64,000 bases of DNA from an uncultured Bacilli bacterium (GCA_934130175.1 CAKOXP010000008.1:181-64180); one strand, 5' to 3'. Shown: positions 13,775 to 15,545, numbered from the stretch's first letter. Numbers and translations are program-made. Notes: generated by a model not told the origin, from the sequence alone.

Positions 13775-13822
13775 ATCTTTTCACCCTCTTATCAAAAGTT
13801 AATCTTACATATATTTAATATA

Positions 13823-14413
13823 TCATAAAACAAATACTTTAAACAAACATTTAAGAAGATTATGTCTCTGATATCTATAAATAGTTACTACTATAAATAA
13901 TATAAAAATATATAGTAACACCGCAAATACCGGTAGTAAAAATTTTTTAATATTTTGATTTGCGATTTTCATTTTATATTCATCTAAAGAATATTTCTTC
14001 TTCCATCTGTTTAATTTTCCTTTTGCGCATTTTATATACAATTGATTAGCAAACATTACCCAAAATGTTTTTTCAATAATAATTGATAAAAAGAACAAGA
14101 AATCGGAAAAGTTAAAAAATCCCAAATTAATAAAACTACCAATATAAGTATTAAAATAAACAAATAATAAACTCAGTAATTCAAGGAAAAATCCAACAAA
14201 GAAACAATTTCTATAACAAAAATATAGTCCTCCAAGTAAAAATACTTTTAAATTATTAGTATTATGTATTATATCATCATACTCATACCCTAACATAATT
14301 TCTAAATCACTATTTTCACTCTTTGTTTTTTTGATATAGTTTCCATTTTTCATATACCCACAAACCATACAATAATCTTTAAAATTAGATTTTCCACATT
14401 TAGGACAATTCAT
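13823..14413 (-). CDS. Zinc-ribbon membrane protein (DUF2628-like)
   Basis: N-terminal CPKCG...CMVCG, then LLGGLYFCYRNCFF and several TM helices. Extended -10 (TGcTATAAT, minus strand, 14450..14458) upstream. Confidence 0.4.
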   Translation of the reverse strand: MNCPKCGKSNFKDYCMVCGYMKNGNYIKKTKSENSDLEIMLGYEYDDIIHNTNNLKVFLLGGLYFCYRNCFFVGFFLELLSLLFVYFNTYIGSFINLGFFNFSDFLFFLSIIIEKTFWVMFANQLYIKCAKGKLNRWKKKYSLDEYKMKIANQNIKKFLLPVFAVLLYIFILFIVVTIYRYQRHNLLKCLFKVFVL

Positions 14414-14487
14414 AAAAACACCAATCTTTCAATTCTTATTATCAAGCTAATTATAGCATAGTATTGTAAGATTTTTTCTAGTTTTTT

Positions 14488-14518
14488 CTTGTTTAATTTA
14501 TCGAACATGTGTTATATT
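14488..14518 (+). promoter_or_regulatory. Unit 1 promoter with overlapping LexA (Cheo-box-like) operator CGAACATGTGTTAT (14502..14515)
   Basis: TTGTTT -35, 17-18 nt spacer, TTATAT/TATATT -10. The 14-mer matches the Firmicute consensus CGAACATATGTTCG at 11 of 14 positions and overlaps the -10. Confidence 0.55.
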
Positions 14519-14583
14519 TAACTTGGAACATTTAGTTGTTGAGTGTCTACCTCTAATCTTTATAGAGAGGAGGTTATTGATAT

Positions 14584-14667
14584 ATGGGAAAGAAAGATTT
14601 TTTAATTACTATCTTACTCACTATTATCATATTATTAATAGCTCTACTCTTCATAACATTGAAGTAG
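14584..14667 (+). CDS. 27-aa hydrophobic peptide MGKKDFLITILLTIIILLIALLFITLK (type I toxin-like)
   Basis: SD AGAGGAGG 8-9 nt upstream. The ORF length is conserved in all three units despite 4 substitutions. Single TM flanked by Lys. Confidence 0.6.
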   Translation: MGKKDFLITILLTIIILLIALLFITLK

Positions 14668-14676
14668 TATCACCTA

Positions 14677-14766
14677 TAAATAAAAACGGCACTCATCTCT
14701 TTCAAAGATAAGTGCCTCTCAAACAAATTTGGGTAGACATTCTACTTGTCAAACTGAATGTTCCCC
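14677..14766 (-). ncRNA. Candidate antisense RNA, unit 1 (3' end defined by a minus-strand terminator at 14677..14716)
   Basis: Minus strand reads GGCACTTATCT-ttgaaag-AGATGAGTGCC followed by gtttttattta. A possible TAAAAT -10 lies at 14773..14778, so the 5' end is uncertain. Confidence 0.3.
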
Positions 14767-14836
14767 TTTTTTATTTTATGCAAGAATACTTGCTACATAC
14801 ATAATAACATATTCTTTTTATTTTTTCTAGTTTTTT

Positions 14837-14867
14837 CTTGTTTAATTTATCGAACATGTGTTATATT
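14837..14867 (+). promoter_or_regulatory. Unit 2 promoter with LexA-box-like operator (14851..14864)
   Basis: -35 TTGTTT at 14838..14843, -10 at 14861..14867, CGAACATGTGTTAT overlapping it. Confidence 0.55.
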
Positions 14868-14932
14868 TGACTTGGAACATTTAGTTGTTGAGTGTCTACC
14901 TCTAATCTTTATAGAGAGGAGGTCTTTGATAT

Positions 14933-15016
14933 ATGGGAAAGAAAGATTTTTTAATCTTTATCTTACTTATTATTATCATTTTACTTATAAGCCTACTCTT
15001 CATTATCTTGAAGTAG
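14933..15016 (+). CDS. 27-aa hydrophobic peptide MGKKDFLIFILLIIIILLISLLFIILK (type I toxin-like)
   Basis: SD AGAGGAGG. Nucleotide-identical ORF in unit 3. Confidence 0.6.
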   Translation: MGKKDFLIFILLIIIILLISLLFIILK

Positions 15017-15024
15017 TAAATCCT

Positions 15025-15116
15025 ATAAATAAAAATGACACTCATCCGCAAAGATAAGTGTCTATCAAACCAATTTAGGTAGACATTCAACTAAGCAAAA
15101 AAACTGAATGTTCCCT
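15025..15116 (-). ncRNA. Candidate antisense RNA, unit 2 (terminator 15025..15062)
   Basis: Minus strand reads GACACTTATC-tttgcg-GATGAGTGTC followed by atttttattta. It overlaps the 3' UTR and terminator of the peptide mRNA. Confidence 0.3.
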
Positions 15117-15187
15117 TTTTTTATTTTATGCAAGAATACTTGCTACATACATGATAACATACTCTTTCTATTTTTTCTAGTTTTTTT

Positions 15188-15218
15188 CTTGTTTATTTTA
15201 TCGAACATGTGTTATATT
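15188..15218 (+). promoter_or_regulatory. Unit 3 promoter with LexA-box-like operator (15202..15215)
   Basis: Same architecture as units 1 and 2. Confidence 0.55.
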
Positions 15219-15283
15219 TGACTTGGAACATTTAGTTGTTGAGTGTCTACCTCTAATCTAGAAAGAGAGGAGGTCTTTGATAT

Positions 15284-15367
15284 ATGGGAAAGAAAGATTT
15301 TTTAATCTTTATCTTACTTATTATTATCATTTTACTTATAAGCCTACTCTTCATTATCTTGAAGTAG
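15284..15367 (+). CDS. 27-aa hydrophobic peptide, identical to the unit 2 peptide
   Basis: SD AGAGGAGG; ATG 15284, TAG 15365-15367. Confidence 0.6.
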   Translation: MGKKDFLIFILLIIIILLISLLFIILK

Positions 15368-15375
15368 TAAATCCT

Positions 15376-15465
15376 ATAAATAAAAATGACACTCATCCGC
15401 AAAGATAAGTGTCAAATCCTAACATTTAGGTAGACATTCAACTTTGCAAAACTGAATGCTTTCCT
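15376..15465 (-). ncRNA. Candidate antisense RNA, unit 3 (terminator 15376..15413)
   Basis: Same hairpin and T-run as unit 2. Confidence 0.3.
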
Positions 15466-15545
15466 TTTTTTATTTTATGCAAGAATACTTGCTACATACA
15501 TAGTATCATAATATTAATTTTTTTTCAATATATGCTTTCTTAAGA

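Follow-up and report, generated by a model that had tools for sequence, protein, structure and literature searches.

A candidate type I toxin-antitoxin-like cassette of uncultured Bacilli, with a covarying 5′-3′ mRNA interaction and a putative 3′-overlapping antisense RNA

Introduction

In a 64,000-nt stretch of DNA from an uncultured Bacilli bacterium (hereafter the window), three tandem repeats each carry a very short open reading frame (ORF) followed by a hairpin. Does the region behind the ORF act in the mRNA, in an RNA read from the opposite strand, or in both? A preliminary description made from the sequence had noted a compensatory change in the hairpin, a wobble position that is valid in the minus-strand RNA only, a 9-nt complementarity between the 5′ and 3′ UTRs and a possible pairing that would sequester the Shine-Dalgarno (SD) sequence, and had proposed either a hok-like fold-back or a 3′-overlapping antisense control. 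Here we follow these signals through the homologues of the cassette, and weigh what the locus may encode.

Results

The cassette array and its setting

The array (Table 1) is flanked by a 196-aa zinc-ribbon membrane-protein gene and addA on one side and by addB on the other. Read along the plus strand, unit 2 consists of a promoter, the leader, the SD sequence AGAGAGGAGG, the ORF, an A-run with a hairpin at 15037-15062, the segments AGGTAGACATTCAAC (15077-15091) and AACTGAATGTTCC (15102-15114), a T-run and the palindrome GCAAGAATACTTGC (15130-15143), after which comes a minus-strand promoter (15179-15151). The genome, of 1.32 Mb and 26.8% G+C, holds eight full cassettes on four contigs. Five of these lie outside the array, on contigs C12 (L011, 680-1452), C3 (L012, 660-1300) and C10 (L013, 840-1150); two of the five are found directly behind a tRNA-His gene, and in the first of them the UTR scaffold is the same but the peptide is another one, of 30 aa. 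The genes addA and addB, normally adjacent, are here split by the array and the 196-aa gene (13775-15545). In another genome of the same genus (L016), two cassettes rather than three stand beside the same 196-aa gene, so that copy number varies at the addA/addB-side site.

Table 1. Positions of the cassette features in the three units of the window
Feature	Unit 1	Unit 2	Unit 3	Strand	Basis or remark
Whole array, three tandem cassettes of ~350 bp each	14470-15535 (all units)			+	93% mean column identity
mRNA promoter: -35 TTGTTT, extended -10 TGtTATATT		14838-14867		+	Read directly
LexA-box-like CGAACATGTGTTAT, overlapping the extended -10	14502-14515	14851-14864	15202-15215		Window promoters
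Leader, 5′ strand of the long-distance interaction	14525-14552	14874-14901	15225-15252	+	RNAfold, covariation, duplex energies
SD hairpin: anti-SD ACCUCU (14898-14903) with GGAGGU (14918-14923)		14898-14923		+	MFE fold
ORF of the 27-aa hydrophobic peptide (unit 2: MGKKDFLIFILLIIIILLISLLFIILK)	14584-14667	14933-15016	15284-15367	+	ORF list
Antisense terminator T(-): stem, then U-tract AUUUUUAUUU	14716-14688 (stem)	15025-15062 (stem 15062-15037)	15414-15387 (stem)	-	Terminator scan, covariation, wobble asymmetry
3′ element AGGUAGACAUUCAAC, partner of L2, also 5′ arm of H2	14731-14745	15077-15091	15428-15442	+	
H2: ACAUUCAGU...GUUGAAUGU in minus sense		15083-15112		-	RNAalifold, pair counts
AACUGAAUGUUCC, L1 partner of the mRNA 5′ end, also 3′ arm of H2	14752-14764	15102-15114	15450-15464	+	
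AACUGAAUGUUCC plus the mRNA-ending U-tract		15102-15122		+	
A-rich single-stranded linker CAUAAAAUAAAAAAA	14765-14780	15116-15130	15465-15479	-	Most conserved cassette stretch (A3 columns 26-39)
H1, 5′-terminal hairpin GCAAG-UAUU-CUUGC	14780-14793	15130-15143	15479-15492	-	Folds
Antisense promoter: TAGAAA, 17 nt, TGtTATCAT	14829-14801	15151-15179	15528-15500	-	Promoter scan

Homologues were collected with nhmmer, as a strict regular expression had missed diverged copies; the 113 full-length cassettes obtained were reduced to 76 that were non-redundant at 93% identity, and 68 were analysed. Matches occur in 44 of 61 related genomes, one of which has up to 16 DNA matches, some of them partial. 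Within this set of 61, strong matches are confined to the taxonomic family of the window, and those outside it are weak (E no better than ~3e-5). A pattern scan of species-representative genomes, from which chance matches in unrelated phyla were removed with nhmmer, located the cassette in metagenome-assembled genomes named as uncultured Bacilli, Tenericutes, Coprobacillus sp. CAG:605, Firmicutes bacterium CAG:460 and Candidatus Ventrenecus. The contigs of four further loci (L069, L082, L105 and L142) carry bona fide cassettes in records labelled Muribaculaceae. One of these contigs (1868 bp) is identical to that of L035, whose genome is placed in the window's own family; because the two are the same contig, this points to mis-binning or mislabelling rather than to occurrence in Bacteroidota. 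Searches by blastn of plasmid and phage collections gave no match to the cassette, an Rfam scan of the region with E up to 10 returned noise only, and a full-text literature search for the peptide and leader sequences was without a match, as was a search for literature linking type I toxin-antitoxin systems with this lineage.

The peptide and its promoter

The peptides of the 27-aa ORFs have Lys-rich ends and an Ile/Leu core. Across the family, one and the same UTR scaffold is combined with three classes of peptide, namely MxKKDFLI... (27 aa), MKTKTFIIKVLK...VIKK (30 aa) and MTKREFSQF... (25 aa), and the ORFs appear to be exchangeable inside a fixed regulatory frame. Entropy at the three codon positions was 0.75/0.29/0.94 in the 27-aa class and 0.61/0.44/0.90 in the 30-aa class, and synonymous differences outnumber nonsynonymous ones. 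This codon-position pattern, together with the synonymous excess, indicates that the peptide ORFs are translated and under purifying selection. Searches of Pfam and NCBIfam with the peptides gave no family match. One criterion for a type I system, a small (<60 aa) hydrophobic peptide of membrane type on a short mRNA, describes what was found here, the predicted mRNAs being 217-251 nt long.

With RNA starts and 3′ ends placed from consensus motifs only, transcription of the unit 2 mRNA would begin at ~14873-14875. A TATAAT-like -10 element is kept at the mRNA promoter position throughout the family. The motif RAAC-N4-GTT occurs in 29 of the 68 cassette promoters, compared with ~0.5 expected from its genome-wide frequency. 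In other cassettes the LexA-like box reads RAAC-N4-GTTT; GAACNNNNGTTY has no match in the window's own promoters, where the box has GTTA, and the strict form CGAAC-N4-GTTYG is absent from the whole genome.

The minus strand encodes a candidate antisense RNA

The sequences and coordinates of the preliminary description proved correct throughout. The hairpin behind the ORF reads GGCAC...GTGCC in unit 1 (14688-14716), whereas units 2 (15037-15062) and 3 (15387-15414) have GACAC...GTGTC. A single compensatory change among three near-identical repeats is, taken alone, weak evidence; covariation is, however, present across the wider set of 68 non-redundant homologues, where 11 of the 12 pairs of the T(-) stem are changed on both sides. 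The strand specificity claimed for the hairpin was likewise found, since the position that is C/A in the plus sense is G·U in the minus sense and a U-tract follows the stem on the minus strand only, and folding of both strands gives a stable minus-strand hairpin.

In a consensus scan only the minus strand gave terminator-like sites, three of them where 0.2 were expected, together with three minus-strand promoters. Family-wide, the antisense promoter has an extended -10 in 62 of 66 cassettes and a -35 matching at least four of six positions in 63 of 66 (variants include TTGACA, TTGTAA and TTGAAA); it is near-consensus and stronger than the mRNA promoter. A constant 21-22 nt separates its -10 element from the conserved linker, and this places the antisense transcription start at the foot of H1, and the RNA would extend from ~15144 to ~15027, a length of ~117 nt. 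Another criterion for type I systems, an antisense gene with its own promoter, terminator and complementarity to the toxin mRNA, thus finds its counterpart here, at the level of sequence only.

Folding of the minus-strand RNA (15146-15025) predicts three hairpins, with an energy of -32.5 kcal/mol (z = -4.2). RNAalifold, applied to the minus-sense alignment of the 68 sequences, recovered H2 and the T(-) stem, with 13 of 17 pairs compensatory. When the 21 pairs of the antisense structure were counted, 91.8% of cells were paired compared with 81.5 ± 0.5% in shuffles, and 166 cells were changed on both sides compared with 59; neither value was reached in 500 shuffles, and slid controls were 30-41% paired. 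The wobbles in these hairpins are strongly asymmetric, with 180 cells G·U in the minus sense and 18 G·U in the plus sense only. For H2 the corresponding figures are 118 and 2, and 94.8% of its cells are paired in the minus sense versus 75.7% in the plus sense. Folding cassette by cassette gave -15.5 (minus) versus -13.0 kcal/mol (plus) for T(-) and -11.1 versus -7.6 kcal/mol for H2; H1 also folds better in the minus sense, which is the better one in 50-58 of the 68 cassettes. The H1 stem is swapped wholesale in paralogues (UGAAG/CUUCA, CAAGG/CUUG). Covariation, wobble asymmetry, per-cassette folds and promoter conservation therefore confirm family-wide what the preliminary description had proposed from three units, namely that the structure is selected in the minus-strand RNA.

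Among the 68 homologues, the linker is conserved as CATAAAATAAAAAA in the minus sense, which in the plus sense is the T-run plus ATTTTATG. This conservation exceeds the needs of a terminator U-tract; within the antisense RNA, the linker may act as a single-stranded toehold or be recognized by a protein or an RNase.

The mRNA 5′ end is predicted to pair with its own 3′ UTR

The exact complementarity reported between TGTCTACCT (14893-14901) and AGGTAGACA (15077-15085), with the pairing kept by one G·U in unit 1, is present, but its length had been underestimated, the 9-mer being the core of a fold-back of 27-28 bp. In unit 2 the leader GGAACAUUUAGUUGUUGAGUGUCUACCU (14874-14901) pairs with 15077-15091 and 15102-15114, its segment GGAACAUUUAGUU forming helix L1 and GUUGAGUGUCUACCU helix L2. 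The minimum free energy (MFE) fold of the mRNA (14869-15128) has -74.2 kcal/mol (z = -7.2) and holds the leader GGAACAUUUAGUUGUUGAGUGUCUACC in this clamp.

Two kinds of evidence indicate that the clamp is kept across the family. Duplexes of leaders with 3′ UTRs have a mean energy of -34.3 kcal/mol for cognate pairs, -26.5 for non-cognate pairs and -13.5 for shuffled 3′ segments; cognate and non-cognate duplexes differ at a permutation z of -13.3 in this alignment-free comparison. Counts were also made on a sequence-only MAFFT alignment of a 5′ UTR plus 3′-end construct, with a specified structure of 28 pairs that derives from one member of the alignment: over the 68 cassettes, 88.3% of cells were paired compared with 81.0 ± 0.4% in shuffles, and 18 pairs and 150 cells were changed on both sides, each of these values being reached by 0 of 500 shuffles, a significance that, here as for the antisense hairpins, is somewhat overstated because the sequences are related and the shuffle controls ignore phylogeny. 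Slid controls were 37-48% paired. Covarying pairs include A-U/G-C at 35:30, C-G/U-A at 42:20 and U-A/G-C at 51:11. RNAalifold, run on a MAFFT mini-construct of 5′ and 3′ UTRs, proposed instead a pairing of the SD with the U-tract, which we rejected as spurious, since in that alignment the leader classes are out of register with one another.

Wobbles in the clamp form valid pairs in the plus sense only, a polarity opposite to that of H2 and T(-). One stretch of 3′ UTR DNA is thus doubly constrained, for pairing with the leader in the mRNA and for hairpin formation in its complement. Where C·A mismatches weaken the local plus-strand hairpin, the antisense hairpin has G·U pairs. In the 27-aa class this local hairpin at the T-run is weak, with a mean of -4.8 kcal/mol and 19 of 27 cassettes weaker than -6, whereas the helix of the mRNA 5′ end with the last 13-15 nt has -14.7 kcal/mol and ends exactly at the U-tract. 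The weak hairpin is seen in the window (15077-15122) and in 27-aa-class cassettes at L026, L031, L048, L056 and others.

In the plus sense, the leader (14887-14896) has a further complementarity, to the 5′ arm of the T(-) hairpin (15037-15044). These duplexes co-evolve as well (cognate -13.4 versus permuted -9.7 kcal/mol, z = -9.9). The match may mark another docking site or an intermediate of folding, or it may have arisen by gene conversion between twin hairpins.

Predicted sequestration of the SD

Pairing of CCTCT (14899-14903) with the SD had been raised as a possibility, and the MFE fold indeed contains it as ACCUCU:GGAGGU, with 80% of cells paired across the family and weak covariation, since the SD itself is invariant. 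The helix is stacked directly on the clamp, and the anti-SD shares bases with the inner clamp end (ACCU, in helix L2, in the window class and UUGCC in another). The energy needed to open the ribosome binding site (RBS), from the SD to just past the AUG, was 9.7 kcal/mol in the closed mRNA, 11.5 with the 3′ UTR blocked and 12.3 with the 3′ end truncated, rising in 56 and 62 of the 68 cassettes, respectively. The opening energy rises without the clamp because the anti-SD overlaps its inner end; the clamp is thus predicted to compete with the SD for the anti-SD, shifting the RBS opening energy by 1.7-2.6 kcal/mol. When the 3′ UTR was blocked in models of the 68 cassettes, the probability that the first 12 nt are unpaired went from 0.14 to 0.55, and the SD was predicted to be buried in every state modelled.

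Discussion

We think it probable, at roughly 0.7, that the cassette is a type I toxin-antitoxin-like module of two convergent transcripts, in which a clamp in the style of hok and AapA1 is joined to a 3′-overlapping antisense RNA in the style of Bacillus, as suggested by the covariation, promoter and folding evidence. A hok-like fold-back and a 3′-overlapping antisense control, offered in the preliminary description as alternatives, would then both be present; occlusion of the SD by the 3′ end, as in hok and AapA1, does not hold, the anti-SD being local. The sequences themselves show the cassette features, the covariation, the strand-specific wobbles, the conservation of the promoter and selection on the coding sequence; from these we infer production of the two RNAs, toxicity of the peptide and the effects of antisense binding described below.

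The plus strand would yield an mRNA of ~250 nt encoding a 27-aa single-helix membrane peptide, the putative toxin. The first 27-28 nt of this mRNA would be paired with two segments of its own 3′ UTR, so that the molecule is shut end to end, up to the terminator U-tract, and a local anti-SD hairpin on the clamp would bury the SD. From the stronger, near-consensus promoter, the minus strand would give an antisense RNA of ~117 nt composed of H1, the A-rich linker, H2 and T(-), and fully complementary to ~100 nt of the mRNA 3′ UTR. Since the antisense RNA is complementary to the segments on which the leader docks, it is a near-copy of the leader, and its binding would therefore have to displace the leader; it is Watson-Crick throughout where the leader uses G·U. 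Binding would expose the mRNA 5′ end, the freed anti-SD would pair more fully with the SD and tighten the SD lock, and the long duplex of mRNA and antisense RNA would be a substrate for RNase III. The genome encodes RNase III, two RNase J paralogues and RNase Y.

We put forward only tentatively a more specific scheme, a leader-mimic switch that requires toehold strand displacement, a change from a closed to an open state and a terminator built from the mRNA 5′ end to hold jointly. Under this scheme the antisense RNA would oust the leader from the shared 3′ UTR docking site by toehold-mediated strand displacement, with the invariant A-rich linker, pairing with the mRNA U-tail, as the toehold. 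Closed, the mRNA would be protected from nucleases and weakly translatable; once opened, it would be locked at the SD and exposed to cleavage by RNase III. [quoted passage not shown]

The RNA signals may be real and the toxin-antitoxin label nonetheless wrong, if the peptide is a benign small membrane protein, such as a regulator or stress peptide, that is tuned by a cis-antisense RNA and mRNA structure and possibly controlled by LexA. The peptides show no likeness to known toxin families, the SD is predicted to be buried in all states, and a LexA-box-like motif in 29 of 68 promoters would suit a damage-induced small protein. A benign role fits poorly, however, with the wide occurrence of cassettes in tandem and in multiple copies (eight in the 1.3-Mb genome, and as many as 16 DNA matches, not all of them complete, in a relative), with two or three unrelated classes of hydrophobic peptide on one regulatory scaffold, with the very tight occlusion of translation, and with an antisense promoter stronger than that of the mRNA. 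Multiple copies, varied peptides, tight occlusion and a strong antisense promoter together are the usual hallmarks of type I loci (PMC8594479), and we consider a benign peptide unlikely.

Two further readings would deny one or the other of the RNA elements a role of its own, and both were rejected. If the two ends were complementary because a recombinase or gene conversion preserves them as DNA, as the terminal inverted repeats of a small mobile element, one would expect the multiple copies, tandem arrangement and varied genomic contexts that are seen, including one array directly behind a tRNA-His gene; the recurrence of leader-like sequence in the T(-) hairpin could also be due to gene conversion. 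Maintenance of DNA would not, however, yield non-Watson-Crick positions that are G·U in the plus sense in the clamp and in the minus sense in H2 and T(-). Moreover, the conserved sequence reaches past the repeats and includes both promoters, no recombinase gene or target-site duplication was seen, and plasmid and phage collections had no match. The strand-specific wobbles and the conservation beyond the repeats leave this origin very improbable. Nor is it readily credible that the minus-strand hairpins merely terminate neighbouring minus-strand genes without a separate antisense RNA. The gene addB (17852 to 15546, minus strand) does run towards unit 3, whose T(-) could stop it, but a near-consensus minus-strand promoter lies 21-22 nt from the linker in 62-63 of 66 cassettes, whatever their genomic context, and the internal units of the array, like the copies on other contigs, have no minus-strand gene upstream. 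H1 and H2, needless for a simple terminator, are nevertheless conserved and covarying. It is on these grounds, own promoters, independence of context and conservation of H1 and H2, that the plain-terminator reading was set aside.

The toxin-antitoxin-like reading can be compared with known systems of three kinds. With bsrG/SR4 of Bacillus subtilis, and with txpA/RatA, bsrE/SR5 and yonT/SR6, the cassette has in common a small hydrophobic peptide mRNA and a convergent antisense RNA of ~100-180 nt that starts from a promoter of its own and overlaps the 3′ end of the mRNA, as well as an SD in a local helix. To our knowledge, a 5′ end clamped to the 3′ UTR segments that the antisense RNA targets has not been described for bsrG/SR4, txpA/RatA, bsrE/SR5 or yonT/SR6. 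When SR4 binds the 3′ end of bsrG, the helix that holds the SD is reported to grow longer and decay to be promoted (PMC3834814); our energy model predicts an SD effect in the same direction here, a logic closer to SR4/bsrG than to hok and AapA1. The antisense RNAs of TxpA/RatA, BsrE-G-H and YonT also overlap the ORF (PMC8594479), whereas in the cassette the overlap takes in the 3′ UTR only, or the last 2-3 codons in the 30-aa class. No likeness in sequence, Rfam, Pfam or NCBIfam to the bsrG/SR4 or txpA/RatA families was found, and we do not assign the cassette to them by homology.

In hok/sok of plasmid R1 and aapA/IsoA of Helicobacter pylori, as here, the full-length toxin mRNA is closed by a covarying 5′-3′ interaction. 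In mRNAs of the hok/AapA type, short 5′ hairpins can form first during transcription, and removal of the 3′ end activates translation of hok and AapA1 (PMC6733600). Trimming thus activates those mRNAs, while accessibility of the RBS is predicted to fall here when the clamp is lost. The 3′ end of hok and aapA provides the anti-SD or locks an inert fold, and it is in the 5′ part or the ORF of the mRNA, once processed, that their antisense RNAs bind; in the cassette the SD is paired with a nearby anti-SD, and the antisense RNA would bind the 3′ docking site itself. With hok/sok the fold-back principle is the sole shared feature, as there is no Hok/Gef domain (Pfam) and no mok-like or overlapping leader ORF, and the antisense RNA lies at the 3′ end. 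A long-distance interaction, as in aapA/IsoA, is present, but the SD pairs locally and the antisense RNA covers the 3′ UTR only, unlike that of aapA, which lies wholly inside the mRNA and overlaps the ORF start.

Fst/RNAII (par of pAD1) and SprA1/SprA1as resemble the cassette in being Gram-positive type I systems with convergent RNAs that meet at their 3′ ends, in their SD-sequestering 5′ structure and in their tandem or multi-copy loci. The functional interaction of Fst/RNAII and SprA1 lies outside the overlap, at the 5′ translation-initiation region (PMC8594479). No Fst domain or Rfam match was found here, and the repeat is inverted rather than direct, so that the antisense RNA resembles the leader instead of complementing it, save for a possible 8-bp match to the T(-) arm. 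T1TAdb places the convergent 3′-overlap design in Gram-positive families and the 5′-3′ interaction in the Gram-negative hok and AapA (PMC8594479). Their combination, with antisense RNA and leader competing for one site, was not found in the literature searched on these systems.

The cassettes are an undescribed toxin-antitoxin-like family that is common in uncultured gut bacteria, and their loci are invisible to present gene and RNA annotation although the small genomes of this lineage carry up to ~12 copies. In the reading that we favour, two designs from separate systems, the 5′-3′ clamp of hok and AapA1 and the 3′-overlapping antisense RNA of Gram-positive bacteria, would be united in such a way that antitoxin and mRNA leader compete for a single docking site. 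The family would offer a compact model, rich in covariation, in which to study RNA strand displacement and the control of translation from a distance, and the opposite G·U asymmetries of its overlapping elements allow the functional strand of each to be read from DNA alone.
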